Both the position numbers and the translations under genes were made by a program. A model generated the notes under the pieces. It did not search any database, was not told the DNA's origin, and saw only the letters and a list, made by a program, of their open reading frames with translations. From contig SBGG01000076.1 of assembly GCA_006226685.1 (NCBI GenBank), positions 5,111-69,110 of the forward strand: a stretch of 64,000 nucleotides of DNA, written 5' to 3'. Shown piece by piece: positions 28,888 through 51,612 of this stretch. The DNA comes from Sphingomonadales bacterium (GTDB lineage: Bacteria > Pseudomonadota > Alphaproteobacteria > Sphingomonadales > Sphingomonadaceae). Numbering within the stretch: position 1 is the first letter of the stretch; the number at the start of each line of letters is the position of its first letter.

Positions 28888-29664
28888 ATGTCCAGCCATG
28901 AAATAGCAGCCGAACGGCTGCGTAATGCTTATAAGGATGGCGTGATTGCGCCGCTGCGCGACCTGATCGCGCCGGATGACGGGGAGGGCGCCTATGCGAT
29001 TCAGGCGATCAACACCCGTTATTGGCAGGGGCAGGGCCGCCGCATCGTCGGGCGCAAGGTCGGGTTGACCGCCCGGGCCGTGCAGGCGCAGCTTGGTGTC
29101 AGCCAGCCCGATTTCGGCGTGTTGTTCGATGATATGCAGGTGCCCGATGGCGGCGTTCTGAAACCCGGGGCCCTGTTGCAGCCCAAGGCCGAGGCCGAAG
29201 TCGCGATGATCCTCGGGGTGGACCTACCCGCGCGGGCGGTGACGGAAGACGAGGTCGCGGCCGCCGTGGCCGAAGTGACCGCCGCAATCGAGATCGTCGA
29301 CAGCCGCATCGCCGACTGGAAGATTTCCTTCGCCGACACGGTTGCCGACAATGGTTCCTCCAGCATGTTCGTTCTGGGTAAGACCCGCAAACCGCTCGCC
29401 GGGCTGGATCTGTGGACCTGCGGCATGGTGCTGGAACAAAATGGCGAAATCACCTCGCTGGGTACGGGCGCGGCCTGCCTCGGGCATCCGCTGCGTGCGG
29501 CGACCTGGCTTGCCAACACGCTGGCCGCTCAGGGAGAGCCGCTGGGCAAGGGCGACATCATCCTGACCGGCGCGCTCGGTCCGATGGTGCCGTTGCGTCC
29601 GGGCGACGACATCAAGGTGAGCATAGCCGGGCTGGATAGCGTTTCCTTCAGTTACAAGGATTGA
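28888..29664 (+). CDS. 2-keto-4-pentenoate (2-oxopent-4-enoate) hydratase
   Basis: MhpD/BphH/XylJ-like sequence (YAIQAINTRYWQGQGRRIVGRKVGLT, GDIILTGALGPMVP). ATG 28888 follows GTGAGG; the ORF-track start at 28864 is GTG. Confidence 0.9.
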   Translation: MSSHEIAAERLRNAYKDGVIAPLRDLIAPDDGEGAYAIQAINTRYWQGQGRRIVGRKVGLTARAVQAQLGVSQPDFGVLFDDMQVPDGGVLKPGALLQPKAEAEVAMILGVDLPARAVTEDEVAAAVAEVTAAIEIVDSRIADWKISFADTVADNGSSSMFVLGKTRKPLAGLDLWTCGMVLEQNGEITSLGTGAACLGHPLRAATWLANTLAAQGEPLGKGDIILTGALGPMVPLRPGDDIKVSIAGLDSVSFSYKD

Positions 29665-29670
29665 ACAGCA

Positions 29671-30615
29671 ATGACTGATAAATTGCCAGTGGCGATCATC
29701 GGGTCGGGCAATATTGGCACCGACCTGATGATCAAGATCATGCGCCTGTCGAAAACGCTCGAAATGGGCGCGTTCGTCGGGATCGACCCGGAATCGGATG
29801 GCCTGAAACGCGCGGCGCGTCTCGGCGTGCCGGTGACGGCGGAGGGCATTGACGGCCTTGTCGCCATGCCGGAATTCCAGAAGATCGGCATTGTGTTCGA
29901 TGCCACCAGCGCCGGCGCCCACAAGCGCCATAACGAGATATTGCAGCAGCATGGCAAGCGGGTGATCGATCTCACGCCCGCCGCCATCGGGCCTTATGTC
30001 GTGCCGCCGGTCAATGGCGAGGCGCAGCTTGACGCGCATAATGTCAACATGGTGACCTGCGGCGGGCAGGCGACCATTCCGGTCGTCCATGCGATCAGCC
30101 GCGTGGCGAAGGTGCATTATGGCGAGATCGTCGCATCGATCGCGTCGAAGAGCGCCGGTCCCGGCACCCGCGCCAATATTGACGAGTTCACCGAAACCAC
30201 CAGCCAGGCGATCATGGATGTCGGCGGGGCCGCGCGCGGCAAGGCGATCATCGTCCTCAACCCGGCCGAACCGCCGCTCATCATGCGCGACACCGTCTAT
30301 TGTCTGTGCGAAGAGGCCGACACGGCGGTGATCGAACAGTCGGTTGCCGACATGGTGGCCGAGGTTCAGGCCTATGTGCCCGGCTATCGCCTGAAACAGG
30401 CAGTGCAGTTCGAACATATCGGCAGCAACCAGCCGTTGCGCATTCCGGAAATGGACGGCGAATTCACCGGCCTGAAGGTCAGCGTGTTCCTCGAAGTGGA
30501 GGGCGCGGCCCATTATCTGCCGGCTTATGCCGGTAATCTCGACATCATGACCTCCGCGGCGCTCAAGACCGCGGAAAAGATCGCATTGCGCTTGCGTGAA
30601 GGAGTTTCGGCATGA
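29671..30615 (+). CDS. Acetaldehyde dehydrogenase (acetylating)
   Basis: The N-terminus [19 protein letters not shown] and the catalytic region [12 protein letters not shown] are as in DmpF/MhpF/BphJ. The stop overlaps the next ATG (ATGA). Confidence 0.93.
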
Positions 30616-31643
30616 CCTTCGATCCGACCAAGGACAAGCTCTATATTCAGGACGTCACGCTGCGCGACGGCATGCATGCGGTTCGCCACCAATATGGCAT
30701 CGACCATGTGACGGCGATCGCGAAGGCGCTCGACCGGGCGAAGGTCGATGCGATCGAGGTTGCCCATGGCGACGGCCTTTCGGGCAGCTCGTTCAACTAT
30801 GGTTTCGGCGCGCATACCGACTGGGACTGGATCGGCGCAGTCGCCGAAGTGCTGGAACATAGCGTGCTGACCACCTTGCTGCTGCCCGGCATCGGCACGA
30901 TCCATGATCTCAAACATGCTTATGAAATGGGTGTGCGTTCGGTGCGCGTCGCCACCCATTGCACCGAGGCGGATGTCAGCAAGCAGCATATCGAATATGC
31001 GCGCGGGCTTGGCATGGATGTGTCCGGTTTCCTGATGATGAGTCACATGTCGGAGCCGGAGGCGCTCGCCCAGCAGGCAAAGCTGATGGAAAGCTATGGC
31101 GCCCATTGCATCTATGTGACCGACAGCGGCGGCGCGATGACGATGGATCAATATGCGGCGCGGGTGCAGGCCTATGACCGGGTGCTGAAGCCGGAGACGC
31201 AGCGCGGCGTTCATGCCCATCATAATCTCAGCCTCGGCGTCGCCAATTCGATCGTCGCGGTGCAGAACGGCGCGGTGCGCGTGGACGCCAGCCTTGCCGG
31301 CATGGGCGCGGGTGCGGGCAATGCTCCGCTGGAAGTATTCATCGCCGCCGCCGACGCCTATGGCTGGAACCATGGCACGGATTTGTTCGCACTGATGGAT
31401 GCGGCGGAAGAACTGGTGCGTCCGTTGCAGGATCGCCCGGTCCGGGTCGATCGTGAAACGCTGACCCTTGGTTATGCGGGTGTCTATTCTTCCTTCCTGC
31501 GCCATGCCGAAAAGGCTTCGGCCGAATATGGCATCGACACGCGCGCAATCCTGGTCGAGCTGGGCCGGCGGAAGATGGTCGGCGGTCAGGAAGATATGAT
31601 CGTCGATGTCGCGCTCGACATGATCAAGGAAAAGACCGTTTAG
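30612..31643 (+). CDS. 4-hydroxy-2-oxovalerate aldolase
   Basis: [19 protein letters not shown] and [15 protein letters not shown] are as in DmpG/MhpE/BphI. The gene is translationally coupled to the dehydrogenase gene. Confidence 0.93.
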
Positions 31644-31867
31644 AGCATTTTCGGAATGACCGTGGAACGGTCATTCCGTTCGAAAATGCGGTCACAAAGA
31701 CAAGAGCGTTTCCGTTCATCCTGAGCAGGTTCCAGATTCTGGTTCCCGCGTTCGGGATCGGTTTCGGCAGGCCCCTCGGCCGCCTTCCTTTCCCGCACGG
31801 GAGCGAGGTGGGTGGTCGGGGGGCTTTTTGTCAGGGCCACACCCCAGGGTGTTTGCCCTGACAAACG

Positions 31868-31893
31868 AAAAGGGCGGCCTGAGCCGCCCTTTT
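31868..31893. terminator. Bidirectional rho-independent terminator between the convergent aldolase and CarAa-like genes
   Basis: The sequence is AAAA GGGCGGC ctga GCCGCCC TTTT: a 7-bp GC stem with a 4-nt loop, flanked by an A-run and a T-run. It lies 28 nt downstream of the CarAa-like stop codon. Confidence 0.65.
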
Positions 31894-31921
31894 GCAGGTT
31901 CCGATCCGTTTGACGGGATTG

Positions 31922-33103
31922 TCAGATGATGTCGCTCGGCTTTTGCACGCTGGGGCCATTGCGATGGCATAGCTCGCGCCACATGATGATCCCGTTATCT
32001 TCGGTCACCAAGGTTTCCTCGAGCCAGTTCTGGTCATGCTCATAGAAAGGCTGCAAGGCCTCGCGGGCAAACACGTCCTCATTGTTGAAACCTTCGAGCG
32101 AAACCGGCTTCCAGCGGTGCCAGAATTCATGTTCATGCTCGGCGCGCTCTTCGTCATTGGCGCAGGGCTTGCCGATGGTGATGATGTAGAGGTGGGAATC
32201 CTCGGTGATCGGTACATACCATTCGAACTGGAAACGTCCGACAAAGGGGAAATTGTCGACGCGCAAGACGCCCGGCATGCAGATATAATGGCCGGTCGTG
32301 CGCTTTTTCGCGGCTTCCTCGGGCGTCTGGTGCATCTTGGTGCCGGTCACGACGATCTTGCCTTCCACGCGGCCTTCATAGGCCATGGGGGCGGCGTCCT
32401 TGAAGGTGCGCGTGGATACGCCCTTGGGCTGGCCCTGTTCCTCGTGCAGTTCGAAAAAGTCCACCGGCCGGTCGGTATGGCCAAGCGGCAGCGAGCGCTG
32501 GGTATTGGGGACCAGCGGCGACTGGCGATGCAGATAGATGTGCAGGTCGTCAATGCCGTTTTCGCAGCCAAGCCGCCAGTTCGACTGGACCATATAGGAG
32601 GAGCCATGCACTTCCATAGTGTCGTCGAGGAAGGTCGGCGGGACATCCTGTGACAGGGGGTGGGGTTCATAATCGGCGTCGCCGACGAACACGAAGACGA
32701 GGCCCTTGGCTTCCTGCACCGGATAGGAATGGATCGCCTTCTTGCCGATGATCGGCGTATTCGGGCTGGCGATGATGTCGCACAGCGTGCCGTCCTCCCA
32801 GCGATAGGTGAAGCCGTGATACCAGCAGGTCACGGTGTTGCGGGTATAGCATTCGACCTTTTCGGAGAATTTCACGCCGCGATGCAGGCAGCGGTCCCGA
32901 ATGGCGTGAACCTTGCCGTCAATGCGCTTGAGCAGGATATCCTCGCCCATTAATTTCCGGCTGACGACTTCATTTTCGCCCAGTTCCCGAGAGAACATGA
33001 TCGGATACCAGTGGTTCCGGAACCCGAGTTTCGCCGCGAGATAATTACGCCACCGCGGCACTTTCTTCAGGAGGCGTTCGTCTACGAAACTGTCCTCGAC
33101 CAT
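31922..33103 (-). CDS. Alpha-only Rieske non-haem iron oxygenase resembling the carbazole 1,9a-dioxygenase terminal oxygenase (CarAa-like)
   Basis: 393 aa. Rieske motif CLHRGV...(17)...CWYHGF; mononuclear-iron motif ENGIDDLHIYLH. The blocks KLGFRNHWYP, TCWYHGFTYRWEDGTLCDI, YPVQEAKG, SNWRL, FEWYVPI, GKPCANDEER and WKPVSLEGFNNEDVFAREA match my recollection of Pseudomonas CarAa. No beta-subunit gene is adjacent. Confidence 0.82.
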   Translation of the reverse strand: MVEDSFVDERLLKKVPRWRNYLAAKLGFRNHWYPIMFSRELGENEVVSRKLMGEDILLKRIDGKVHAIRDRCLHRGVKFSEKVECYTRNTVTCWYHGFTYRWEDGTLCDIIASPNTPIIGKKAIHSYPVQEAKGLVFVFVGDADYEPHPLSQDVPPTFLDDTMEVHGSSYMVQSNWRLGCENGIDDLHIYLHRQSPLVPNTQRSLPLGHTDRPVDFFELHEEQGQPKGVSTRTFKDAAPMAYEGRVEGKIVVTGTKMHQTPEEAAKKRTTGHYICMPGVLRVDNFPFVGRFQFEWYVPITEDSHLYIITIGKPCANDEERAEHEHEFWHRWKPVSLEGFNNEDVFAREALQPFYEHDQNWLEETLVTEDNGIIMWRELCHRNGPSVQKPSDII

Positions 33104-33179
33104 TGCATTCCATTCCCCGTTTCACCCGCCAGACGACGGGCGTGATGATTGACCTGCCATCGATTGACGGCTTTTGGAG

Positions 33180-33200
33180 TTATGCATACAGTATGCATAA
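33180..33200. promoter_or_regulatory. Operator S1: perfect 21-bp palindrome TTATGCATACAGTATGCATAA between the divergent CarAa-like and hydrolase genes
   Basis: Read directly; it is perfectly self-complementary (10-1-10). The centre TACAGT (33187-33192) lies 17 nt downstream of TTGACG (33164-33169), so it coincides with a plausible -10 element. Confidence 0.6.
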
Positions 33201-33239
33201 ATTGCAAGCTCGATCGCGTCGGGAAAGTTTGCGGAAACA

Positions 33240-34025
33240 ATGTGCCGGGAGGTTGAAGTGCCCTATATTGATGCTGGCGAAAGCCGGATTTATTATGAAA
33301 GCCATGGAGAGGGGCCGCCTGTCCTGTTCGCCCATGGCGTGGGCGGGAATCATGCCAGCTGGCATAAGCAGGTTCCCGATTTCGTGAAGGATTATCGCGT
33401 CATCCTGTTCGATCATCGCGCATTTGGTAACTCGTCCGATGTGGAGGAGGCCGGGCAGTCCCGTTATGTGGAGGATATGCTCTGCCTGCTCGATGCGCTG
33501 GAGATCGACCGGGTCATTCTGGTCGGGCAATCCATGGGCGGAGGGACCTGCGCCAATTTTACCTGTGCCCATCCCGAACGGGTCGAAAAGCTGGTCATTG
33601 CCGATTCCCTGATCGGCATCGATGCCCCCGAACCATTAGCTACCATGGTCAGGGAAACGCTCGACCGCGTCTGGAACCTCAGCCAGGCGGAACGGGTGCT
33701 CGGCCCGGTGATGCGGGATGACGATCCCGCGAGCACATTGCTCTATCTGCAGATCGCCAGTTTCAACGCGGTGACGATCCGCACGCTGAAAGGAAGCATG
33801 CCGCGCTGGACCCCGGACCGGCTGGCTGCCACCGGCGTGCCGACCTTGTTCCTTGTAGGGGAGCATGATGTGTTGTTCCCGCCGGAAAATGTACGAATGG
33901 CGCAGGCCATGGTTGCCGGGGCATCTTTCGCCCTGATCGAAGGGGCGGGGCATTCAGCTTATTTCGAGCGCCCCCTTGCGTTCAACCGGCATGTCCGGGC
34001 GTTTCTCTCAGCCGGGGAGGGGTAA
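33240..34025 (+). CDS. Alpha/beta-fold hydrolase
   Basis: 261 aa with HGVGGNHASW and the nucleophile elbow LVGQSMGGG, plus a C-terminal GAGHSAYFERP. An alternative GTG start at 33258 lies 6 nt after GGGAGG. Confidence 0.85.
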   Translation: MCREVEVPYIDAGESRIYYESHGEGPPVLFAHGVGGNHASWHKQVPDFVKDYRVILFDHRAFGNSSDVEEAGQSRYVEDMLCLLDALEIDRVILVGQSMGGGTCANFTCAHPERVEKLVIADSLIGIDAPEPLATMVRETLDRVWNLSQAERVLGPVMRDDDPASTLLYLQIASFNAVTIRTLKGSMPRWTPDRLAATGVPTLFLVGEHDVLFPPENVRMAQAMVAGASFALIEGAGHSAYFERPLAFNRHVRAFLSAGEG

Positions 34026-34030
34026 GGAGT

Positions 34031-35224
34031 ATGGCGTCCGTTGAAACGGCCGATATCGTCATCGCCGGCGGTGCCGGCATGGGCAGCGCCGTCGCCTATT
34101 TTCTGAAATCGCTCGGGCCGGAAAATCTGCGTATCATCGTCTGCGAACCCGACCCGACCTATGCCCGTGCCGCGACCACTCTGGCGGCGGGCGGTATCCG
34201 GCAGCAATTTTCCACGCCGGAAAATATCGTCATGTCGCAATATGGCTTCGATTTTCTGCGCCGGATTGATGAAGAGCTGGCGATTGACGGGGAAGGCCCG
34301 CAAGTCGACCTGCATGTGGTGCCCTATCTGCATCTCGCTGCGGGGGGCAAGGATGTCGATGGCCTGCGCGAGAGTTTCGAATTGCAGTCGGAACTGGGCG
34401 CCGGGCCGCTCTGGCTGGAGCGGGACGATCTGCGCGCGCGCTACCCGTGGATGACGGTGGACGATATCGATGCCGCGGTTCTCGGCGGCCCGCGCGAAGG
34501 CGTGTTCGATCCCTATGCGATGTTGCAGGCGTTCCGCCGCAAGGCCGTGTCTTTGGGGGTGGAATATCGCCCCGCAGCCGTTACCGGCATCGAACCGGCA
34601 TCGGGCGCCGAGGGCGTGACGGTTGCCCTATCCGATGGTGGCAGGCTGGCCTGCGGGCGAATCATCAACTGCGCGGGGCCTGCCGCCGGGCGGCTTGCGG
34701 CGCTGGCGGGGCTCGATCTGCCTGTTATTCCGGTGCGGGCGCACAGTTTCGTGTTCAAGGTGGAGCAGGCGCCGACGACGGATCTCTTCCCGATCATCGT
34801 CGATCAGGTTCAGTTGCTCAATATCCGCGCGGAAGGCGATATGTTCCTGGCCGGTTCGCCGCGCGAAGGGGAACTGGTCGATGCCGGGGATAATTTCGCG
34901 ATCGATTATGATTTTTTCGATACTGAATTATGGCCGATGCTGGCGACGCGCGTGCCCGCATTCGAAGCGATCCGGATGACCAGCGCCTGGGTCGGTCATA
35001 TGGAATGGAGCCTGCCGGATGCCAATCCGATCATCGGCCCGCATCCCGATTTTCCGGCTATGGTCTTCGTCAACGGTTTTAGCGGCCATGGCGTGCAGCA
35101 CTGCCCGGCGGTCGGCCGGGCGGTGGCGGAACTGATAGTGTTCGGGGCATATCGGTCGATCGACCTCTCCCGTTTTTCCTATGACCGGATCGCCGCCGGT
35201 CAGCCGCTCACGGAGCGGTACTGA
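34031..35224 (+). CDS. FAD-dependent oxidoreductase (DAO family)
   Basis: 397 aa. The N-terminal dinucleotide fold is ADIVIAGGAGMGSAVAYFL, and the overall layout resembles D-amino-acid / sarcosine oxidase beta. The start lies 5 nt after the hydrolase stop. Confidence 0.82.
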   Translation: MASVETADIVIAGGAGMGSAVAYFLKSLGPENLRIIVCEPDPTYARAATTLAAGGIRQQFSTPENIVMSQYGFDFLRRIDEELAIDGEGPQVDLHVVPYLHLAAGGKDVDGLRESFELQSELGAGPLWLERDDLRARYPWMTVDDIDAAVLGGPREGVFDPYAMLQAFRRKAVSLGVEYRPAAVTGIEPASGAEGVTVALSDGGRLACGRIINCAGPAAGRLAALAGLDLPVIPVRAHSFVFKVEQAPTTDLFPIIVDQVQLLNIRAEGDMFLAGSPREGELVDAGDNFAIDYDFFDTELWPMLATRVPAFEAIRMTSAWVGHMEWSLPDANPIIGPHPDFPAMVFVNGFSGHGVQHCPAVGRAVAELIVFGAYRSIDLSRFSYDRIAAGQPLTERY

Positions 35225-36488: not shown

Positions 36489-36516
36489 ATGCTCCGGTCC
36501 CCGATCTTTGTTTTTG

Positions 36517-36538
36517 GCATACTGCATACAAATATGCC
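36517..36538. promoter_or_regulatory. Operator-like hexamer array S2 (GCATAC-t-GCATAC-aaa-TATGCC) upstream of the MFS gene
   Basis: Two perfect GCATAC hexamers and one degenerate inverted copy lie 29-50 nt upstream of the MFS ATG. Confidence 0.35.
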
Positions 36539-36621: not shown

Positions 36622-36650
36622 TTGACAATAGCATACTGTATGCAACAAAT
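36622..36650 (+). promoter_or_regulatory. Putative sigma70-type promoter (TTGACA-17 nt-ACAAAT) with operator S3 (GCATACTGTATGC, 36631-36643) inside the spacer
   Basis: A consensus -35 TTGACA lies at 36622-36627. The 17-nt spacer contains the perfect 13-bp palindrome. A weak -10 ACAAAT lies at 36645-36650, about 60 nt upstream of the Rieske oxygenase ATG. Confidence 0.5.
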
Positions 36651-37989: not shown

Positions 37990-38072
37990 GATCCCGTTCG
38001 GGTCATGGTCGGATCGTCAGCCGGAATGCCGGCGATGATCCTTCCCAACATGCTGACAGGGAAGGGTTGGCA

Positions 38073-41156: not shown

Positions 41157-41178
41157 TGCATACCGTATTCAGAATGCA
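41157..41178. promoter_or_regulatory. Operator-like hexamer array S4 (TGCATAC-c-GTATTC-a-GAATGC) between the FAH and aldehyde dehydrogenase genes
   Basis: It matches the 15-bp palindrome TGCATACNGTATGCA at 14 of 15 positions and carries one additional degenerate hexamer. Confidence 0.45.
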
Positions 41179-41205
41179 ATTGATCGTGAAGGCAGGCATA
41201 GCATC

Positions 41206-44348: not shown

Positions 44349-44510
44349 CCGACTTTGCGGGCTGGTCGCGGCAGGAAGCGCGGCCGGCCCGTTTCACATG
44401 GCGGCAGGGACGAAGCGGTGCGCTACCGGAAGATGGCGCGGACGACCGGCAGAATAATAATGGCGGCGTTACAGAATCCCGCTTGCGGCCACTTTCTTTT
44501 TGTGATCCAT

Positions 44511-44525
44511 TGTATGCAGTACACA
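44511..44525. promoter_or_regulatory. Degenerate operator-like site S5 (GTATGC-a-GTACAC) upstream of the TBDR gene
   Basis: One perfect hexamer and one 4/6 hexamer lie about 50 nt upstream of the TBDR ATG. The match is weak. Confidence 0.25.
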
Positions 44526-44575
44526 TAACGGAGGACGCATAAGAAAGATAATATTAGCAAGAAGGGGACGTGGGA

Positions 44576-46945
44576 ATGACATATCCGAATCAAGCAACAG
44601 GCCGCGCGACGGCCCGAAAAGGAAGTGCCTGCATCAAATCCGCCCTGCTGGCCGGTGCCCTGTTCATGCCGCCCATGTCGGCGGCCTGGGCGCAGGGAGC
44701 CTCTCAGGGTGATGGAGAAATCGTCGTTACGGCCAACCGGCGCGGGGAACAGACCCTGCTGGATGTTCCGCTGGCCATCGATGCCTATTCCGGCAAGACC
44801 CTGTCGGACTATAAGATCAATTCCGTTCAGGATCTGACCAAGCTGACGCCTTCGCTCAACGTCGTCAATCTGGGCGCCACCCAGCAGCAGATCGTGGTGC
44901 GCGGTATTTCGTCCAGCGTTGGCGCCACCACTGGCGTCTATATCGATGAGGCGCCCCTCATCGGCCCCTTCAACGGCAATGTCGCAGGCGACGGCACGCC
45001 CAGCCTTCGCCTGATCGACGTGGATCATGTCGAGGTGCTCAAAGGGCCGCAGGGCACCCTGTTCGGTGCGGGGTCCATGGCCGGCACGTTGCGCGCGGTT
45101 CTGAACAAGCCTGACCTGACGAAAGTCGAAGGCGCTGCCGATGCCTCCTGGGCGGCGGTCAAGGGAGGGGATCCGCTCTTCAAGGGATCGGCGGTCGTCA
45201 ACCTGCCGGTCGTGGCCGATACACTCGGTGTTCGCGTCGTCGGCTGGACCGAGCAGGGCGGCGGCTATATCGACAAGCAGTTCGTTACCGGCGTTCGCGA
45301 CAAGAACAGCAACGACCTCAACCTTTATGGCGGCCGCATCATGGCGCGCTGGCAGGCTTCCGAGGATCTGACGATCGACCTGGCCGCCAATTATCAGCGG
45401 ATCAAGGTGGGCGGGCCGCAATATGTGACGGAATCGGTCGGCTATCAGGCAACGCCCCCCAATCAGGGCCGTTATGCCAATTTCGACCCCGTGGCCGAAC
45501 GGTATCGCGAAACCTATCAGCTCTATTCGATCGTGGCGGATTATGATGTCGGCGTCGGCAACATCGTTGCCAGCGGCAGCTATGGCCGCAAGACTCTGCT
45601 CGATGTTATCGATACATCCGGTCAGGCCTGCTTCTTTGGGCTGTGCTCTGGAACTTTCGCCTATCCGACCGCCTTTACCAGCAAGATCGGCTTCCGCGAT
45701 TATACGGCGGAACTGCGGTTCTCGTCGAAATTCGACGGTCCGTTCCAGATTGTTGCGGGCGGCTATTATCAGAATGATCGCCGCACCTTTAAAGGCGCGA
45801 CCATTGTAACCGATCTGGATACAGGCACGCTGCCGTGCGACACCTATGCGCAATGCGTGTCCGCCGGGATGGTCCAGCCGGGCTTCGGCAACAATGTCGT
45901 GGTGTTCTCCAATGCCTCGCGGTTTACGGTCAGCCAATATGCATTCTACGCGCAGGCCGACTATCAAATCGTGCCGACCCTGACCGCGACCGTGGGCGCT
46001 CGCTATTTCCACGCGCGCCTCACCGATCAGTTGACGGATGAGCAGGCGGTCTACCCCGATTTCATCTTCGGGGATGTCAGCGTGCCTTCCACCGGCCCCA
46101 AGACCAAGGCCAATCAGAGCCGCCCGACCTTCAACTTCTCGCTGATGTGGAAGCCGGAGAAGGATGTCAGCCTATATGCGCGCGCCGCATCCGGTTTCCG
46201 TATCGGCGGCATCAACAACAGCGCGGCCGTGGCGGAACAGGGCGGGATTTCCATCCCGACCAGTTTCTCGCCCGACAAGCTCTGGAACTATGAGGTCGGC
46301 GCGAAATTCTTCCTGCTCGACCGCGCGGTTTCTTTCGACCTGTCGGCCTATCATATCGACTGGAAGGATCAGCAGCTCAACGGCCTTGCCCAGGGTGTCT
46401 TCAACTATCAGTTGAATGCCGGCCTGACCAAGACGAACGGCTTTGAAATCAGCACGGACATCCGCCCGTTGCAGGGGCTGAGCCTGGGGGGCAGCCTGAC
46501 CTATGTCGATGCCAAGCTGAAATCGGATCTCCCGTCGGACGTGGTGCTGGGCGGTACGCCTGGCATGAATGGCGACCGGGTGCCTTATGTGCCGCGCTGG
46601 TCTTTCTCCGGCCGGGCGCAATATGAGCATCCGCTTTCCGCGACGGTCGACGGCTATCTCCAGACCGATTTCAATTATCGCGGTTCGTCCTATACCCAGT
46701 TCCGCCCGGTTACCGCGGCGGATCAGGTTGCGGGCATCCCGGATAATTATTTCACGCGCATACCGTCCTACTTCCTATGGAATGCGCGTGTCGGCGTTCG
46801 GATCGATCAGGTCGACATCAGTGCCTTCGTGCAGAACATCACCAACAAGTTTGCGGTGGTGGGGGCCAAGGCCGATGCCAATGAGGTGCGCTATTATACC
46901 GCGCAACCGCGCTCGATCGGGCTCAGCCTCTCGACCAAATTCTGA
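44576..46945 (+). CDS. TonB-dependent receptor embedded in the aromatic catabolic cluster
   Basis: The signal peptide ends ...PPMSAAWAQG. TonB-box-like GEIVVTANRR; plug motifs IDEAPLIG and VEVLKGPQGTLFGAGSMAGTL. The barrel ends in a terminal Phe (LSLSTKF). ATG 44576 lies 7 nt after AAGGGGA; GTG 44570 is too close to the RBS. Confidence 0.92.
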   Translation: MTYPNQATGRATARKGSACIKSALLAGALFMPPMSAAWAQGASQGDGEIVVTANRRGEQTLLDVPLAIDAYSGKTLSDYKINSVQDLTKLTPSLNVVNLGATQQQIVVRGISSSVGATTGVYIDEAPLIGPFNGNVAGDGTPSLRLIDVDHVEVLKGPQGTLFGAGSMAGTLRAVLNKPDLTKVEGAADASWAAVKGGDPLFKGSAVVNLPVVADTLGVRVVGWTEQGGGYIDKQFVTGVRDKNSNDLNLYGGRIMARWQASEDLTIDLAANYQRIKVGGPQYVTESVGYQATPPNQGRYANFDPVAERYRETYQLYSIVADYDVGVGNIVASGSYGRKTLLDVIDTSGQACFFGLCSGTFAYPTAFTSKIGFRDYTAELRFSSKFDGPFQIVAGGYYQNDRRTFKGATIVTDLDTGTLPCDTYAQCVSAGMVQPGFGNNVVVFSNASRFTVSQYAFYAQADYQIVPTLTATVGARYFHARLTDQLTDEQAVYPDFIFGDVSVPSTGPKTKANQSRPTFNFSLMWKPEKDVSLYARAASGFRIGGINNSAAVAEQGGISIPTSFSPDKLWNYEVGAKFFLLDRAVSFDLSAYHIDWKDQQLNGLAQGVFNYQLNAGLTKTNGFEISTDIRPLQGLSLGGSLTYVDAKLKSDLPSDVVLGGTPGMNGDRVPYVPRWSFSGRAQYEHPLSATVDGYLQTDFNYRGSSYTQFRPVTAADQVAGIPDNYFTRIPSYFLWNARVGVRIDQVDISAFVQNITNKFAVVGAKADANEVRYYTAQPRSIGLSLSTKF

Positions 46946-46971
46946 TCTTTCGATCAGGATAGGATTCATGT

Positions 46972-47007
46972 CACGGTCGCGCATCAGGCGCGGCCGTGAT
47001 TTTTTAT
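46972..47007 (+). terminator. Rho-independent terminator of the TBDR gene
   Basis: CACGGTCGCGC-atcag-GCGCGGCCGTG forms an 11-bp stem with one G-U pair. It is followed by ATTTTTTAT and starts 27 nt after the stop codon. Confidence 0.65.
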
Positions 47008-47040
47008 GGCTGCCACGGTGCGGCGATTGTTGCGGACAGG

Positions 47041-47073
47041 AAAAAGGCGACGCGGCCTCTGCGCCGCGTCGCC
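47041..47073 (-). terminator. Rho-independent terminator of the aspartate-dehydrogenase-like gene
   Basis: GGCGACGCGGC-ctctgc-GCCGCGTCGCC forms an 11-bp perfect stem. On the minus strand it is followed by TTTTT (the plus-strand A-run at 47041-47045). Confidence 0.65.
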
Positions 47074-47095
47074 CGATGGCGTTGTCCGGGCGGGA

Positions 47096-47899
47096 TCAGG
47101 ACCCGATTTTGAGCGTGGAGGTCAGCCCCTGAAGCGCGGCGACGACCGACAGGGCGGTAATCCGTCCGGTGCCGGGTTTCTCGATCGAGGGAATATTCTC
47201 GATCTTCAGCTCGAACCGGGCGGAATCCGCATCGACGATGATATTATGGGTGTTGCGTTCAAGCGCGGGGTCGGCCCAGATCTGAAGCCGGGTCTTGTCC
47301 GGTCCGATCCCGGCAAGGGCGAGGGCCGCGGCAACGTTCACATTGGCCGGGAAGCCGCGAGCGCCTTCTCTCGCGCTGCCGTCAAACAGCATCAGCGGTT
47401 CAGTCAGCGCCATCACGTCCACGCCCTGCCGATCGACTTCGGGTGCGCCTTTCAGCGACTTGGGCGGTTTGCGCGTGACCATGGTCACCGAATATATGGT
47501 GCCGTTCGCCGCAGCCCGTACAGCGTCCAGCCCCAGCAGCGCGCCGGTCGCGACGATGATGCGGCCGCCATGGCGACGGGCGAGATCGACCATTTCCATA
47601 TGTTCGATCAGGGCGGCGGCGCTGACGGTCACCACCTGCTTCCCGGCCTCCAGCGCGGGAATGACGGTTTCGAGAAAGGCGGCTGTCGGCGCGCATTCAA
47701 CGATGATGTCGGCGGTATCGGCCAGTTGCTGCGGCGTCAGCACCGGAACGTCGATCCCCATGTCTTTCAGCTTGGCCTGTGCACGGTCGCTGCTGCCGCT
47801 GGTGATGCCGACCAGTTCCATATTCTCAAGGCCTGCCGCGATACGGCGCCCGACCTCGGCGCCGATGGTTCCGAAGCCCGCAATTCCCACTTTAGTCAT
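47096..47899 (-). CDS. L-aspartate dehydrogenase (NadX) family oxidoreductase
   Basis: MTKVGIAGFGTIGAEVGRRI is a Rossmann fold. The C-terminal block GFPANVNVAAALALAGIGPDKTRLQIWADPALERNTHNIIV is typical of the Asp-DH family. ATG 47899 lies 5 nt after AGGAGG; the ORF-track start at 47914 is GTG. Confidence 0.8.
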   Translation of the reverse strand: MTKVGIAGFGTIGAEVGRRIAAGLENMELVGITSGSSDRAQAKLKDMGIDVPVLTPQQLADTADIIVECAPTAAFLETVIPALEAGKQVVTVSAAALIEHMEMVDLARRHGGRIIVATGALLGLDAVRAAANGTIYSVTMVTRKPPKSLKGAPEVDRQGVDVMALTEPLMLFDGSAREGARGFPANVNVAAALALAGIGPDKTRLQIWADPALERNTHNIIVDADSARFELKIENIPSIEKPGTGRITALSVVAALQGLTSTLKIGS

Positions 47900-47987
47900 T
47901 CCATCCTCCTGCACATGATAGGTAAATCGTCACCCCGGCGGCACCGGATCGGCACCACCGGAAAGGCTCTTGCAGACAGTCTTATAG

Positions 47988-48004
47988 TTGCATACAGTAT
48001 GCAA
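47988..48004. promoter_or_regulatory. Operator S6: perfect 17-bp palindrome TTGCATACAGTATGCAA between the divergent Asp-DH-like and ferredoxin genes
   Basis: Read directly. The centre TACAGT (47993-47998) lies 17 nt downstream of TTGCAG (47970-47975), the same architecture as S1. Confidence 0.6.
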
Positions 48005-48027
48005 TGTAAGTGCTTAGGGAGAAACAA

Positions 48028-48345
48028 ATGACGACGCTCACTCTTGTGTGCAAAACATCGGAGGTGCCTGAAAACGGGGTAAAACAAATATCCATTCCCG
48101 GTTTCGATGAGGAATTTGCCGTTTATCATCTGGATGGCGAGTATTTCGTGACGGACGACATGTGCACTCATGGCATGGTATCGCTGGCCGGCGGCGATAT
48201 CGAGGATGGCCAGATTTTCTGCCCTCTGCATGGCGGAGCATTTGACATCCGTACCGGCAAGGCGACCGAATTGCCCTGCCGCGTGAAGCTGAAAACCTAT
48301 GCGGTCGAGGTGAAGGACGACGCGGTTTACGCGGCCCTGTCCTGA
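48028..48345 (+). CDS. Rieske-type [2Fe-2S] ferredoxin (electron carrier for Rieske oxygenases)
   Basis: 105 aa with CTHGMVSLAGG...(16)...CPLHGGAFD. ATG 48028 follows AGGGAG. Confidence 0.88.
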   Translation: MTTLTLVCKTSEVPENGVKQISIPGFDEEFAVYHLDGEYFVTDDMCTHGMVSLAGGDIEDGQIFCPLHGGAFDIRTGKATELPCRVKLKTYAVEVKDDAVYAALS

Positions 48346-48382
48346 ACGGCTGATCCTTTATCGGGTTTGACGGGCCGCAGCA

Positions 48383-49669
48383 TCATGCTGCGGCCTTTGT
48401 CGTCACTATCGCCCAGTCGCTGCCGGGATCGGCTAAGGCCGCGAGATCGGTAATGCGCTGCCCCAGCAATTTCTTGCCCTGCCGCAAGGCGCGGGCGGCG
48501 TTGACGGAGGTCACCCCGATGACCTCGTCACCCGTCAGGTGGAAGATGAGGAAGTTGCCCTCTGCCCTGTTTCCGCGCACCACGTCGCGTTCCCCGATCG
48601 GGGTGCCGAATACCTGTACCGCTATGTCATATTGGTCGGTCCAGTAGGAGGATTGCTCGGTATAGGCCGGATCGTGGCCATCGATCAGCATGCGGCCGAC
48701 ATGTTCGCCATGGGCGGCGGCGTGGGCCCAGGTCTCCTGCCGGTCATGCCGCCCCAGCCGGTCGTTGAAATGCCAGGCGATTTCGCCGGCGGCATAGATG
48801 AAGGGATCGCTGGTACGCCCTGCGGAATCGACCATGATACCGGTCGGTGCGATCGCCAGACCTGCCTGTTCCGCCAGCGCGATGTTGGGAACAACCCCGA
48901 TGCCGACCAGCACCAGATCGGCCTGAAACCGGTGTCCGTCCGACAAGGTGAAGGTCGGGCCGTTCGCTGTCCGGTCGATCGTTGCGATATGGGTGCCGAG
49001 GCGAAGATCTACACCCGCCGCGCGATGGCGATCTTCGAGGAAATTGCTCAACAGGGGAGAGGCAGCGCGGGCCATGACCCGATCGGCAGGATCGATCACC
49101 AGCACGGAACGGGTGCCGTCGGCGAGAACGGCGGCGGCTTCCAGCCCGATCACGCCCGCACCGATGATCGCGACCTTGCGTGCATTCTCCATCGCACCGC
49201 GCAGCCGGAGTGCATCGTCCAGCGTGCGCAGATAATGGACATGGTCGGTGCCGGGCGGCAGATCGGTCAGCGTCCGGACCGAGGAACCGGTCGCCAGCAC
49301 CAGCCGGTCATACCCGATAGAGTCTCCGCCCTGCAGTGCGATCATACGCCGTTCCGGGTGGAGCGCCGCGCAGCGTGCGCCCAGCCGCAGTTCGATCTGC
49401 GCCGCGGCCAGCTCTTCCGGTCGGGTCAGGTGGATGCGGCTTTCTTCCCCGGCCTTCATCAATACGGCCTTGGACAGGGGCGGGCGATCATAAGGCAGAT
49501 GCTCTTCATCGCTCAGCAGCAGGATCGACCCGGTAAAGCCTGCCTCCCGCAAGGAGAAGGCGACCCGGACACCGGCCAGCCCCGCGCCGACGATGACGAC
49601 CCGGCTCCTTTCGTTCAGTGGCGCGGGATCTCCCTGGGCATTTTTTTCCATCACTGTCTCGCTTGTCAT
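48383..49669 (-). CDS. FAD-dependent ferredoxin--NAD(P)+ reductase (glutathione-reductase-type)
   Basis: 428 aa. FAD fold VVIVGAGLAGVRVA and NAD fold VAIIGAGVIGLEAA, with the reductase C-terminal dimerisation region. The ATG overlaps the stop of the upstream dioxygenase gene (ATGA). Confidence 0.9.
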   Translation of the reverse strand: MTSETVMEKNAQGDPAPLNERSRVVIVGAGLAGVRVAFSLREAGFTGSILLLSDEEHLPYDRPPLSKAVLMKAGEESRIHLTRPEELAAAQIELRLGARCAALHPERRMIALQGGDSIGYDRLVLATGSSVRTLTDLPPGTDHVHYLRTLDDALRLRGAMENARKVAIIGAGVIGLEAAAVLADGTRSVLVIDPADRVMARAASPLLSNFLEDRHRAAGVDLRLGTHIATIDRTANGPTFTLSDGHRFQADLVLVGIGVVPNIALAEQAGLAIAPTGIMVDSAGRTSDPFIYAAGEIAWHFNDRLGRHDRQETWAHAAAHGEHVGRMLIDGHDPAYTEQSSYWTDQYDIAVQVFGTPIGERDVVRGNRAEGNFLIFHLTGDEVIGVTSVNAARALRQGKKLLGQRITDLAALADPGSDWAIVTTKAAA

Positions 49670-50481
49670 CGGTCGGCCCTGATTTCGATCGCGCCCATGC
49701 CGGTGATCCAGGCGGGCACGGCTTCATAATAAATCTCTTCACCGCGAGCGCCGGGCAGGGCACCTGCGGCAAACAGCCATGCAATCATTTCCAGTCCGCC
49801 ATTGCCCGATGCGGCGACGATCTCCTCGCTGCTCAGTTCCGCCAGCTTTTCGGCCTGGCCCGTAATGATGGCGTCAATGACTTCCTTATCGAACGCATCG
49901 GCGATCTGCCCTTCTCCGGGCATGCGCAGCCAGTGAGAAAGCCCCCCGGTACCGACGACCAGAACCCGCTCGCCTTCCGGTCTTTCCTCTTCGACGAAGC
50001 GGTGCAGCACCTCCCCCAGCCGGTAGCAGCGGCGCGGCGAAGGCGGCACGGGCATGGCAGCGTTGATGTAGAGCGGAACGGTCGGAATGGCGTTGCCGGG
50101 ATCGAGCACCAGCTTGGGGAAGGCGGTGCCATGGTCGGGCCGCATTTCCTCTACCTGCACCAGCTCATAATCATGATGGGCAGCGAAGCGGGCAAAGGCT
50201 TCCGCAAAGGCGCGATCCCCCGGGAAACGGCTGACCGGAACGCCGCCGTCGCCCAGCGTTTCGAAGCTGTCGGCAATGCCGATGGCGAGCGTCACCTGCA
50301 TGGCGAGGGTGAAATTATTAAGGTGATCCGCCCCGGCCAGAATGATGAGATCGGGGTTCAGCGCGCGAACGCGCCGGCGTATTTCCAGCATGCCCTGCAA
50401 GACACGCTCGGCCTGTTCCTCTATGCCGTCGGGCGGGAACATGATGTGCGACATTGCGATGGCGCCTATGACCTTACCCAT
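49666..50481 (-). CDS. Class III extradiol dioxygenase, catalytic (LigB/CarBb-like) subunit
   Basis: 271 aa with GAIAMSHIMF, LIILAGADHLNNF, RPDHGTAFP and GTGGLSHWL, which are LigB-family metal and active-site blocks. Confidence 0.88.
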   Translation of the reverse strand: MGKVIGAIAMSHIMFPPDGIEEQAERVLQGMLEIRRRVRALNPDLIILAGADHLNNFTLAMQVTLAIGIADSFETLGDGGVPVSRFPGDRAFAEAFARFAAHHDYELVQVEEMRPDHGTAFPKLVLDPGNAIPTVPLYINAAMPVPPSPRRCYRLGEVLHRFVEEERPEGERVLVVGTGGLSHWLRMPGEGQIADAFDKEVIDAIITGQAEKLAELSSEEIVAASGNGGLEMIAWLFAAGALPGARGEEIYYEAVPAWITGMGAIEIRADR

Positions 50482-50482
50482 A

Positions 50483-50773
50483 TTATCGCTCCAGAAGGCG
50501 GTCGAGATAGGCGTCGAGGGGACCCGCGCCGACCAGTTTGGCGCCGTCGCCGCCGGAATGGCGCAGGCGCAGATATTTCATTTGCAGATTGGGATGGACG
50601 CCAAGGCCGGTCATCGCCTCCATCGATCCGCTATCCAGCAAGGCGGCCTCTTCCGGGCTGATCTCATATTGGTCGAAAATCGGCTGCGGGTCGGTTGCAA
50701 AGCGGGCGGCGGCCGCCGGATCGCGCATCATGTCCTGAATCAGCTTGTGAATGCGATAGGGCGCACGGGTCAT
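50483..50773 (-). CDS. Extradiol dioxygenase small (LigA/CarBa-like) subunit
   Basis: 96 aa from an internal ATG at 50773 (MTRAPYRIHKLIQDMMRDPAAAARFATDPQPIFDQYEISPEEAALLDSGSMEAMTGLGVHPNL), a LigA-like pattern. The ATG overlaps the hydrolase stop (ATGA), and its stop lies 1 nt before the catalytic-subunit ATG. Confidence 0.72.
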   Translation of the reverse strand: MTRAPYRIHKLIQDMMRDPAAAARFATDPQPIFDQYEISPEEAALLDSGSMEAMTGLGVHPNLQMKYLRLRHSGGDGAKLVGAGPLDAYLDRLLER

Positions 50774-51612
50774 TTCGGCTGAACCTCGAACAGGCCGTCC
50801 TGAAAGAAAGCGGTCGTGATCGCGGCAAATTCGCCGGGGGCCTCGATCATCACCCAATGGCCGACATGGGGGAGGACGAAGCCCCAGCTATTGGGCAGCA
50901 GGTCGAGGAACCCATAGGTGCGGGCGAGCACGGCGACCTGATCTTCCTTGCCGCCGACGACCAGCGTCGGCGTCTGCACCTTCGCAATCTCTTCCCGGGG
51001 ATAGGTCATCCCTTCCTGGGCGAGCTTCCGGTTGATCGCGCCAAGTGCTTCCCGGCTGCCCGGTTCCATGGTGAGTTCATAGCGATACTGCACCAGTTCA
51101 TCCTCGATCCGGTAGTGCGACCCGGCGAGTACGCTCATCAGCGTGCGCATGCCCTCCGGCGTATAGTCATAGGATGCCAGTATCTTTTTGGCGGCCGGGT
51201 CAGGGTTGCTGATGTCGAGGCCGGCCGCGCCCATCAGGACGAGTTTGCGGATCAGGTCCGGCCGGGCGATCGCAACGCCCAGCGCCGTGGCGCCGCCCAT
51301 GGAATTGCCGATCAGGAAAACCGGCTCCTCCCCGGCCACGGCGTCGATGAAGGCGGCCATGTGGCGGTTGCGATTGGCCTGCCCATAATCAAATTGTTCG
51401 GGGTCAGGGCGGCCCGATCGACCGAAGCCCGGCATGTCGACCGCGATGGTGCGGAAATGGCGGGCATAACCATCAAGGCACCCGCGCCAGTTGCCCCAGG
51501 CATCCGCACCGGACCCGCCCCCGTGAATCAGGACGAGGACCGGACCACTTCCGGTTTCCAGATAATGGGTCTTCACCCCCGCTATGTCGATGAATTTGCT
51601 TTCCACGTTCAT
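50770..51612 (-). CDS. Meta-cleavage compound (C-C bond) hydrolase, BphD/CarC-like alpha/beta hydrolase
   Basis: 280 aa with VLIHGGGSGADAWGNW, the nucleophile elbow LIGNSMGG and a C-terminal VGHWVMIE, as in MCP hydrolases. It is the first gene of the hydrolase-dioxygenase-reductase operon. Confidence 0.9.
   Translation of the reverse strand: MNVESKFIDIAGVKTHYLETGSGPVLVLIHGGGSGADAWGNWRGCLDGYARHFRTIAVDMPGFGRSGRPDPEQFDYGQANRNRHMAAFIDAVAGEEPVFLIGNSMGGATALGVAIARPDLIRKLVLMGAAGLDISNPDPAAKKILASYDYTPEGMRTLMSVLAGSHYRIEDELVQYRYELTMEPGSREALGAINRKLAQEGMTYPREEIAKVQTPTLVVGGKEDQVAVLARTYGFLDLLPNSWGFVLPHVGHWVMIEAPGEFAAITTAFFQDGLFEVQPK

Follow-up and report, generated by a model that had tools for sequence, protein, structure and literature searches.

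A carbazole-type gene set on a Sphingomonadales contig belongs to a conserved cluster with two Rieske oxygenases and may serve the degradation of an anionic, nitrogen-linked aromatic compound

The DNA analysed here is a 64,000-nucleotide stretch of a Sphingomonadales genome (contig SBGG01000076.1, positions 5,111 to 69,110; hereafter the window), in which region 27985-54666 carries genes resembling the car genes of carbazole degradation. The original prediction had read this region as a scattered car pathway plus extras, with an orphan CarAa-like oxygenase. Its car-type gene calls are borne out by the listing of open reading frames (ORFs) and by profile searches, which place the following elements in the window (HPD, 2-hydroxypenta-2,4-dienoate; MCP, meta-cleavage product; GR, glutathione reductase):

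27985-28800, minus: IclR-family regulator adjoining the lower-pathway operon (PF01614 and PF09339; the match to the PcaR/PcaU subfamily is below cutoff)
28864-29664, plus: HPD hydratase (2-keto-4-pentenoate hydratase), MhpD/CarD-like (NF008461, 4.4e-91)
29671-30615, plus: acetaldehyde dehydrogenase (acylating), CarF/DmpF-like (TIGR03215, 476 bits, above cutoff)
30612-31643, plus: 4-hydroxy-2-oxovalerate aldolase, CarE/DmpG-like (TIGR03217, 578 bits, above cutoff)
31872-31892, no strand: GC-rich hairpin flanked by A/T runs, where the aldolase and CarAa-like genes converge, a candidate bidirectional intrinsic terminator
31922-33103, minus: CarAa-like alpha-only Rieske oxygenase, 393 residues (PF11723, 4.5e-62, plus a Rieske domain)
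48028-48345, plus: Rieske-type ferredoxin (PF00355; CarAc, PDB 1vck, 2.2e-19)
48383-49669, minus: GR-type ferredoxin-NAD+ reductase (PF07992, Pyr_redox_2, and PF14759, Reductase_C; HcaD-like, 1.9e-104)
49666-50481, minus: CarBb-like large subunit of a two-subunit class III extradiol dioxygenase (LigB; PF02900)
50483-50773, minus: CarBa/LigA-like small subunit, 96 residues (weak PF07746 match, 1.6e-4)
50770-51612, minus: CarC/DxnB2-type MCP hydrolase with a GNSMGG nucleophile elbow (PDB 1j1i, 2.3e-70; 4lxg, 8.9e-65)

Among solved structures, the CarAa-like protein is closest to CarAa of Janthinobacterium J3 and P. resinovorans CA10 (PDB 1ww9, 7e-126), followed by CarAa of Novosphingobium KA1 and Nocardioides IC177 and then by OxoO (1z01, 1.5e-85). 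Demethylases (NdmA/B, DdmC) and carnitine monooxygenase match it only at 1e-9 or above and through the Rieske domain alone, in keeping with the earlier assignment of the protein as angular-dioxygenase-like rather than a demethylase. It is 47.8% identical to CarAa of CA10 (plasmid pCAR1) and 45.6% to that of KA1, with characterised CarAa proteins falling at 44-48% overall. In the alignment the Rieske ligands C72, H74, C93 and H96 correspond to C69, H71, C90 and H93 of CA10 CarAa, and the iron ligands H188, H192 and D343, together with the bridging D185, to H183, H187, D333 and D180; all are kept. No match to Ring_hydroxyl_B, the beta-subunit family, was obtained among the cluster proteins scanned. 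The proteins of highest identity include a 100% match in a Sphingobium metagenome-assembled genome (MAG), while the closest named one, at 82%, is annotated as a "carbazole dioxygenase" in Sphingomonas crocodyli.

The remaining car-type calls are likewise supported. CarAc is the second-best solved match of the ferredoxin, and the pairing of a Rieske-type ferredoxin with a GR-type FAD reductase is the arrangement defined as class IIB (PMC10992316), as had been proposed. Compared with PLSDB plasmids, the CarBb-like subunit is 46% identical to KA1 CarBb and 40% to CA10 CarBb, with all others at 36% or less; protocatechuate 4,5-dioxygenases reach only about 30-34%, so the enzyme is of the CarBaBb type and not a plain protocatechuate 4,5-dioxygenase. 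The match of the small subunit to its family is weak, and its position and size are kept in relatives. The hydrolase is closest to CarC (1j1i) and then to DxnB2 (4lxg). A terminator had also been placed next to the CarAa-like gene, and the hairpin at 31872-31892 agrees with it: it lies about 30 nucleotides beyond the CarAa-like stop codon, with a T-run behind it on the minus strand, and folds at -31.6 kcal/mol (z = -3.9). This hairpin is absent from the list returned by a consensus terminator scan and is supported instead by sequence inspection and folding. The same intergenic region holds a long near-perfect palindrome directly after the aldolase stop (31643-31690; GCATTTTCGGAATGACCGT...ACGGTCATTCCG..CGAAAATGC) and a second inverted repeat with an 8-bp stem at about 31833-31866, either of which may be a terminator or an element resembling repetitive extragenic palindromes.

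Between and beyond these genes lies a second set, of which the original prediction had overlooked the second Rieske oxygenase, the second extradiol dioxygenase (LigB2), an aspartate-dehydrogenase-like protein (AspDH-like) and a frameshift in a thiamine-diphosphate (TPP) enzyme gene:

33240-34025, plus: alpha/beta hydrolase 2 (hyd2), PcaD/esterase/MCP-hydrolase-like, kept in the clade described below
34031-35224, plus: DAO1, FAD-dependent oxidase of the amine/amino-acid oxidase family (PF01266, 4.9e-52; weak N-methyltryptophan oxidase (MTOX) match)
35208-36489, minus: major facilitator superfamily (MFS) transporter of the lactate/oxalate-formate type (PF07690 from residue 158 of a long ORF; NF049980)
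36709-37989, plus: second Rieske oxygenase, phthalate family, similar to isophthalate dioxygenase (IPDO-like; PF19301; PDB 9ina, 1.3e-110, 46% identity)
38067-39317, plus: DAO2, a second DAO-family FAD oxidoreductase, ThiO/MTOX-like; accessory, absent in most relatives
39380-40366, plus: LigB2, a second, single-subunit class III (LigB-type) extradiol dioxygenase (PF02900, 2.2e-19; PDB LigB, 2e-12)
40412-41107, plus: FAH-family protein, HpaG/YcgM-like isomerase/decarboxylase/hydrolase; accessory (PF01557, 1.2e-55)
41206-42690, plus: NAD(P)-dependent aldehyde dehydrogenase (ALDH), succinate-semialdehyde-dehydrogenase (SSADH)-like (PF00171; TIGR01780, 1.1e-184, slightly below cutoff)
42722-44348, plus: TPP enzyme of the 2-oxoacid decarboxylase/acetolactate-synthase family, frameshifted
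44570-46945, plus: TonB-dependent outer-membrane receptor (PF00593 and PF07715)
47096-47914, minus: AspDH-like protein of the aspartate-dehydrogenase family, a conserved core member (PF01958 and PF03447)
51815-52591, minus: GntR/FCD-family regulator, kept in the clade (PF00392 and PF07729)
52813-53574, minus: Amdase/EutA-like protein (Asp/Glu-racemase superfamily: decarboxylase or isomerase); accessory (PF17645, 1.7e-13)
53638-54666, plus: NAD(P)H oxidoreductase of the medium-chain dehydrogenase/reductase (MDR) superfamily, quinone-oxidoreductase/PIG3-like (PF00107 and PF08240; TIGR02824, 3.1e-44)

The second oxygenase has the Rieske plus LigXa_C architecture of 9INA, the isophthalate dioxygenase (IPDO) of Comamonas testosteroni KF1, in which R234 and H257 anchor the carboxylates and V178 disfavours ortho-substituted substrates (PMC12445078). 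Both anchors are kept as R246 and H270 and are invariant in 121 homologues, and G177, S180, V183 and I258 are also retained (IPDO G172, V178 and I246 being among their counterparts). Two positions differ, F249 having become R261 and F333 I342, and these substitutions suggest a substrate distinct from isophthalate and more substituted. In relatives the gene is regularly paired with LigB2, as it is here.

For several of the other genes, context adds to the family assignment. In beta-proteobacterial loci hyd2 stands within the hydratase-aldehyde dehydrogenase-aldolase operon, the place that XylF and DmpD occupy in meta-pathway operons; because of this position the second ring, too, probably ends as HPD. 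The AspDH-like protein scores 333 bits on NF009825 (cutoff 253), and a 341-residue plus-strand ORF antisense to it (47006-48031) has no family match and is a spurious high-GC shadow ORF. DAO1 is an accessory gene found in the alpha- and gamma-proteobacterial versions of the set. The MFS transporter probably starts at the ATG at 36489 and not at the GTG at 36884; its relatives are 400-433 residues long. The TPP-enzyme gene is broken at a G-run at about 42920-42935 (GTGCCGGGGGGTTTGC), which separates an N-terminal domain (42722-43027) from the remainder (42918-44348); it is intact in relatives (540-546 residues), and the break is either a homopolymer assembly error in the MAG or a real pseudogene. 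The Amdase-like gene occurs also in a Caulobacteraceae locus, and the MDR gene, a candidate diol dehydrogenase or ene-reductase, in that locus and three others.

The genes of both sets lie behind one operator. A 15-bp palindrome, TGCATACNGTATGCA, has seven sites in the window at up to three mismatches, against 1.6 expected by chance, a count reached in none of 100 shuffles (0/100). All seven fall within six promoter regions of the cluster:

33183-33197, no strand: operator O1, perfect palindrome TGCATACAGTATGCA, divergent CarAa-like/hyd2 promoter region
36516-36530 (3 mismatches) and 36630-36644 (1 mismatch), no strand: operator pair, divergent MFS/IPDO-like promoter region
41157-41171, no strand: operator, 1 mismatch, 35 bp before 41206, the probable start of the ALDH gene
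47989-48003, no strand: operator, perfect palindrome, divergent AspDH-like/ferredoxin promoter region
51640-51654, no strand: operator, 1 mismatch, upstream of the hydrolase-CarBaBb-reductase operon
53596-53610, no strand: operator-like site, 3 mismatches, in the 63-bp divergent Amdase-like/MDR region

The earlier proposal that the intervening genes share an operator with the oxygenase thus holds, and the GntR/FCD regulator is the presumed repressor that would bind it. The window scan, at up to three mismatches, found no match at the HPD operon or the IclR gene, and because of this absence the HPD genes are probably controlled separately by the IclR regulator. The possibility that the GntR protein is an orthologue of CarR was rejected, since its similarity to KA1 CarR is limited to the helix-turn-helix and the KA1 promoter sequence is different.

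To place the locus among its relatives, one genome per species was scanned, which gave 470 relatives, and the top 80 loci were retrieved; gene content was scored by a tblastn matrix covering up to 10 kb on each side of every homologue. In a simple neighbour-joining tree (no bootstrap; genes labelled at 40% identity), the 24 distinct loci with a CarAa homologue of at least 54% identity form one monophyletic clade, and CA10 CarAa (reconstructed from the PDB alignment; 99% identical to P0100) falls outside it, among the other loci. The clade spans alphaproteobacteria (Sphingomonas crocodyli, S. mali, Caulobacteraceae), betaproteobacteria (at least eight Pandoraea, Paraburkholderia, Caballeronia, Variovorax, Cupriavidus, Herbaspirillum and Alcaligenaceae) and gammaproteobacteria (Steroidobacteraceae and another gammaproteobacterial MAG). 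Most of its loci hold most of the IPDO-like, LigB2, hyd2, AspDH-like, ferredoxin, CarBb-like, CarC-like and GntR genes in thoroughly shuffled order, a few being cut off or carrying a partial set. Outside the clade, none of 58 loci has the IPDO-like, LigB2, hyd2 or AspDH-like gene at 40% identity or more, only faint matches of 23-35% being found, although many do have CarBb-like and CarC-like genes. The operator follows the same division, clade loci having 45 sites in 0.50 Mb and the other loci one site in 0.96 Mb, and it lies within 200 bp upstream of the CarAa-like gene in 17 of the 24. Genes that recur in the flanks encode MFS transporters, LysR regulators, VOC (glyoxalase-fold) proteins, MDR dehydrogenases, 2-hydroxyacid dehydrogenases and alpha/beta Rieske oxygenases. 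In S. mali NBRC 15500 (BCYX01000002) two CarAa-clade paralogues lie about 35 kb apart, one with the full regulon and the other with just the GntR and lower-pathway genes nearby.

These comparisons do not sustain the two organisational claims made for the locus. In the closest alphaproteobacterial relatives (neighbourhoods of S. crocodyli, a Caulobacteraceae MAG and two metagenome contigs), the AspDH-like gene alone separates the CarAa-like gene from the ferredoxin, reductase, CarBaBb-like, CarC-like and GntR genes. Flipping the block from the TPP gene to the CarAa-like gene in these relatives reproduces the window order, so a single inversion explains the separation seen here and the CarAa-like gene is not an orphan. 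No insertion sequences or long repeats were found at the inversion boundaries; relative to the same neighbourhoods, a second GntR gene is missing from the window, and DAO2, the FAH gene and the TonB receptor have been gained. What had been taken for a scattered car pathway with extras is a conserved regulon whose core includes the IPDO-like oxygenase and a second meta-cleavage enzyme. The cluster, moreover, has a single ferredoxin and a single reductase for two oxygenases, and only one ferredoxin is found in relatives as well. Because of this, and because the CarAa-like, ferredoxin and IPDO-like genes are directly adjacent in five of the loci, both oxygenases presumably share one ferredoxin/reductase chain.

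The nearest known systems are the car clusters themselves (carAaBaBbCAcAdDFE of CA10 pCAR1, carRAaBaBbCAc of KA1 pCAR3 and the class IIB cluster of Nocardioides IC177). The locus has in common with them a PF11723 alpha-only Rieske oxygenase, a LigAB-type two-subunit dioxygenase, a CarC-type hydrolase and the HPD genes; it shares its Rieske ferredoxin and GR-type reductase with class IIB carbazole 1,9a-dioxygenase, and a GntR-family regulator with the KA1 and J3 clusters. It differs in its modest identity to CarAa and CarBb, in the separate oxygenase clade and, relative to KA1, in a regulator that is not a CarR orthologue and an operator of its own. Moreover, pCAR1 and pCAR3 lack the second oxygenase, second extradiol enzyme, second hydrolase and AspDH-like gene of this locus. 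Two apparent points of contact with known loci were also discarded: the car operon of a thiabendazole-degrading Sphingomonas has a KA1-type CarAa (77% to KA1) and is not of this clade, and ORF7 of pCAR1 is an SCP2-domain protein and not an AspDH-like gene. No paper on the CarAa-like clade or on this gene combination was found in the literature.

The second oxygenase resembles IPDO/IphA of Comamonas and phthalate dioxygenase in architecture and carboxylate anchors. Unlike IPDO, however, it has a LigB-type dioxygenase as its neighbour instead of an Iph-type dehydrogenase, is embedded in a car-like regulon and has no PDR/VanB-type reductase in its cluster, whereas actinobacterial iph-like operons have this reductase and a Zn-dehydrogenase. 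Two such operons, on p2MP of Arthrobacter sp. 68b and pN1 of Rhodococcus aetherivorans, carry IPDO-like homologues of about 48-49% identity and encode the Rieske oxygenase, a Zn-dehydrogenase, a small hypothetical protein and a PDR/VanB reductase; they are probably isophthalate operons under generic annotation, and the Rhodococcus one directly adjoins terephthalate-type genes (alpha/beta oxygenase, PdxA-like dehydrogenase, reductase). Compared by description, the 5,5'-dehydrodivanillate (DDVA) pathway for a lignin biphenyl in Sphingobium SYK-6 (LigXa/Xc/Xd, LigZ, LigY, LigW) also combines a single-subunit LigB-type extradiol enzyme with a hydrolase that releases an isophthalate-type acid (5-carboxyvanillate), but its LigY is of the amidohydrolase type, whereas the hydrolases here have alpha/beta folds and stand beside a CarAa-type oxygenase and an AspDH-like protein. 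The latter, although above the NCBIfam aspartate-dehydrogenase cutoff like ASPDH/NadX (a family with precedents for iminoaspartate and 2-aminomuconate), lies behind the shared operator of an aromatic catabolic regulon and, unlike NadX, not in a NAD-biosynthesis context.

Several features of the locus bear on the substrate. Across the clade, L198, A199, Q165 and F204 of CA10 CarAa are replaced invariantly by R203, S204, Y170 and H209, and V258, A259 and N260 by R268, T269 and T270; in the window protein H272 replaces I262, a position varied in deposited CarAa mutants (PDB variants), and F275, Q282 and F329 are kept. Positions 198, 204, 258-262, 275, 282 and 329 are assigned here to the CarAa pocket by alignment. 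Arg, Thr and His would thus occupy positions that are hydrophobic in CarAa (L198R, F204H, V258R, A259T, N260T, I262H), and neither clade membership nor pocket conservation marks the protein as a carbazole 1,9a-dioxygenase proper. The phylogeny, the conserved gene content and these substitutions lend further weight to the original suggestion of a native substrate other than plain carbazole. The invariant R203 and R268, together with the double carboxylate anchor of the IPDO-like oxygenase, the FCD-type regulator and the carboxylate-type transporters of the loci (MFS of the lactate/oxalate family, TctC in the Alcaligenaceae locus, TonB receptor), suggest that the substrate is anionic.

That it also contains nitrogen is suggested by the conserved AspDH-like gene and the frequent DAO-family oxidases, by the precedent of the human enzyme and by neighbourhoods with kynureninase or with RidA-family and amidohydrolase genes. 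Human ASPDH is a 2-aminomuconate reductase (bioRxiv 10.64898/2026.06.05.730449, 2026 preprint). On a plasmid of Niveispirillum cyanobacteriorum (CP025613, 556715-581509), an AspDH-like protein 63% identical to that of the window is encoded two genes from a kynureninase above the curated cutoff, and this locus may be a bacterial link of the ASPDH family to kynurenine/anthranilate metabolism. The plasmid cluster also contains FAH-family, dihydrodipicolinate-synthase (DHDPS)-family, SNF transporter, LysR regulator and second AspDH-like genes, and the adjacency of AspDH and DHDPS genes recurs in one of the loci with adjoining CarAa-like, ferredoxin and IPDO-like genes. A Bradyrhizobium relative of LigB2 (39%) adjoins RidA-family and amidohydrolase genes, families that include 2-aminomuconate deaminase and 2-amino-3-carboxymuconate semialdehyde decarboxylase.

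Taking these observations together, we favour, with a probability of about 0.5, the reading that region 27985-54666 is a conserved regulon that degrades both rings of an anionic, N-linked biaryl or tricyclic aromatic compound, probably under GntR/FCD repression as far as sequence allows one to judge. In its first stage the CarAa-like alpha3 oxygenase, receiving electrons from the one Rieske ferredoxin and GR-type reductase, would dioxygenate an unsubstituted benzo ring beside the heteroatom to give a 3-substituted catechol, which the CarBaBb-like enzyme would cleave. The CarC-like hydrolase would then split the ring-fission product into HPD, destined for the hydratase, aldolase and dehydrogenase, and an aromatic acid. 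In the second stage the IPDO-like oxygenase, on the same ferredoxin and reductase, would hydroxylate the released (amino-)aromatic carboxylate or dicarboxylate and LigB2 would cleave its ring, while N-bearing fragments would be processed by hyd2, the AspDH-like protein and lineage-specific accessories (the DAO oxidases, the TPP decarboxylase with ALDH, the FAH protein, the Amdase-like protein and the MDR reductase). In favour of a second module beside the car-like one, known car clusters are combined with differing anthranilate modules, ant/and or aca (PMC10992316).

The evidence does not all point this way, and several observations weigh against the two-ring reading. Neither the CarAa-like clade nor the IPDO-like group has a characterised member, the placing of R203 and R268 in the pocket comes from alignment to CarAa and not from coordinates, and the AspDH-like protein may be no more than an aspartate dehydrogenase. 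The frameshift in the TPP gene may mean that the window copy is partly defective, unless it is an assembly error. No kynurenine-pathway, ant/and or aca genes occur in 62 flanking ORFs of related loci; ant/and or aca genes were likewise not seen among the annotated window genes, in a scan that was not exhaustive. Two long metagenome contigs, ERZ12293633 and ERZ12293637, carry the regulon without a CarAa-like gene: both keep the operator and the GntR, CarBaBb-like, CarC-like, AspDH-like, reductase, IPDO-like, LigB2 and TPP genes, but the former has an alpha/beta Rieske oxygenase adjoining LigB2 in the place of the CarAa-like gene, and the latter an MhpA-like flavin monooxygenase, a cupin, TauD and a second AspDH-like gene instead. 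Because the regulon occurs in this form, the CarAa-like protein may be a replaceable, modular entry enzyme, and the pairing of the oxygenases with the cleavage enzymes is a proposed one; the invariant core would thus consist of the steps that deal with a 3-substituted catechol and with the acid released from it.

Four other explanations have to be set against this one. It is very improbable, given the shared operator and the conserved co-occurrence, that the car-like and phthalate/isophthalate-type modules are unrelated neighbours with no functional link. Sphingomonad catabolic genes are often interspersed, and the IPDO-like group, which has far more close homologues than the CarAa-like protein, is more widespread than the CarAa-like clade and occurs without it; yet the modules stand together in about 24 species of three classes despite the shuffled order, have one ferredoxin and one reductase in common, and even the loci without CarAa still hold the CarBaBb-like, CarC-like and AspDH-like genes and the operator. 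We also give little credence to an N-free biaryl-type acid (a carboxylated dibenzofuran or fluorenone, or a lignin- or phytoalexin-derived biphenyl), from which the first stage would release a substituted isophthalate and the IPDO-like oxygenase would make a protocatechuate-like diol for LigB2. The kept isophthalate-binding residues, the iph-like operons beside tph genes in actinobacterial relatives and the role of DxnB2, a close CarC relative, in the dibenzofuran/dioxin pathway would suit such a compound, as would the LigB-type two-subunit dioxygenases used in fluorenone and dibenzofuran pathways, but it is hard to see what the conserved AspDH-like protein and the frequent DAO-family amine oxidases would do in an N-free pathway, and the nearest characterised entry oxygenases, CarAa and OxoO, all act beside a ring nitrogen.

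Two further explanations keep the nitrogen. The region could be a true carbazole locus, converting carbazole to anthranilate and HPD, in which the IPDO-like, LigB2, hyd2 and AspDH-like proteins form a third, novel anthranilate pathway: a hydroxylated anthranilate, opened by extradiol cleavage, would give an intermediate of the 2-aminomuconate type for reduction or deamination by the AspDH homologue. All car functions are indeed present, each nearest to Car proteins, 2-aminomuconate is the substrate of human ASPDH (bioRxiv 10.64898/2026.06.05.730449), and an AspDH-like homologue lies near kynureninase, an anthranilate producer; since known car clusters are already paired with different anthranilate modules, ant/and and aca (PMC10992316), a third type would be a variation on a known theme. 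We nonetheless consider this unlikely: the oxygenase is only 44-48% identical to characterised CarAa and sits in its own clade, the hydrophobic positions of CarAa have become invariant Arg, Thr and His, a neutral hydrophobic substrate is a poor fit for carboxylate-type transporters and an FCD regulator, the IPDO-like protein keeps its meta-geometry anchors and V183, whose IPDO counterpart V178 disfavours ortho-substituted substrates, and the hosts are mainly plant- and soil-associated taxa that are not known carbazole degraders. Quite improbable, in our estimate, is an N-heteroaromatic acid with two rings that derives from tryptophan, such as kynurenate, xanthurenate or a quinolone carboxylate, on whose benzo ring the CarAa-like enzyme would act beside the ring nitrogen in the manner of OxoO, with the other enzymes of the regulon taking the ring-fission product down to HPD and an iminoaspartate- or glutamate-type fragment. 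OxoO, a 2-oxoquinoline 8-monooxygenase, is the next closest solved relative, the Arg residues are invariant in the clade, and the DAO, TPP decarboxylase, SSADH-like ALDH, MDR and AspDH enzymes suit the processing of 2-oxo-acid or enamine side chains; to our knowledge, moreover, the classical Pseudomonas kynurenate pathway is understood biochemically only, its genes being unassigned. This mapping is chemical reasoning, however, and it gives no role to the second aromatic oxygenase and second extradiol dioxygenase, both core members; beta-proteobacterial loci have no TPP, ALDH or DAO gene within 10 kb, and the 62 flanking ORFs include no kynurenine-pathway gene.

A more speculative reading, which we regard as rather unlikely, is an undescribed pathway for a widespread, tryptophan-derived anionic aza-carbazole/quinoline-type compound. 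One candidate is beta-carboline-3-carboxylate, from which removal of the benzo ring would leave 5-aminopyridine-2,4-dicarboxylate, an isostere of isophthalate, and for whose tetrahydro precursors the DAO/MTOX-like oxidases could carry out the aromatisation; acids of the kynurenate type are a further candidate. The bacterial ASPDH homologue would then handle an N-bearing ring-fission product of the iminoaspartate or 2-aminomuconate type, as a counterpart of human ASPDH. Phenazine-1-carboxylate was dropped on chemical grounds, as it would yield an amide and 2-hydroxymuconate instead of an aryl carboxylate and HPD.

As to the genomic setting, the flanks consist of chromosomal housekeeping genes. 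Immediately upstream, at 17043-27994, come the genes of glycogen metabolism (debranching enzyme, glycogen synthase, ADP-glucose pyrophosphorylase, branching enzyme, glycogen phosphorylase and an alpha-amylase-family enzyme), and downstream (55923-62841) those of DEAD-box and RecQ helicases and an ABC-F protein; because these genes flank the regulon, the region appears to be chromosomal and without mobile elements. Origin from a plasmid, or from a known car plasmid, was rejected, as a PLSDB megablast of the 24-kb region matched only lower-pathway genes at 70-80%. Unrelated to the regulon are a tetratricopeptide-repeat protein fused to a putative 2-oxoglutarate-Fe(II) oxygenase domain (4027-5742), and a 1015-residue TonB-dependent receptor and an 895-residue protein with an M14 carboxypeptidase domain (6249-12004).

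If the two-ring reading is true, "carbazole dioxygenase" annotations would be wrong in substance in about two dozen soil- and plant-associated species, including members of Pandoraea, Paraburkholderia, Caballeronia, Variovorax, Sphingomonas, Caulobacteraceae and Steroidobacteraceae. These organisms would instead have a distinct pathway, with two Rieske oxygenases on one class IIB chain, two LigB-type ring cleavages and an AspDH-family enzyme in aromatic catabolism. Since the conserved operator and repressor define the pathway, its inducer and substrate are directly testable in cultured strains. Such a pathway could extend CarAa-type angular dioxygenases to a new class of substrates and uncover a new lower route for amino-aromatic acids, and the reading with a tryptophan-derived compound, if true, might give genes to long-orphan enzyme activities in the bacterial catabolism of tryptophan metabolites.

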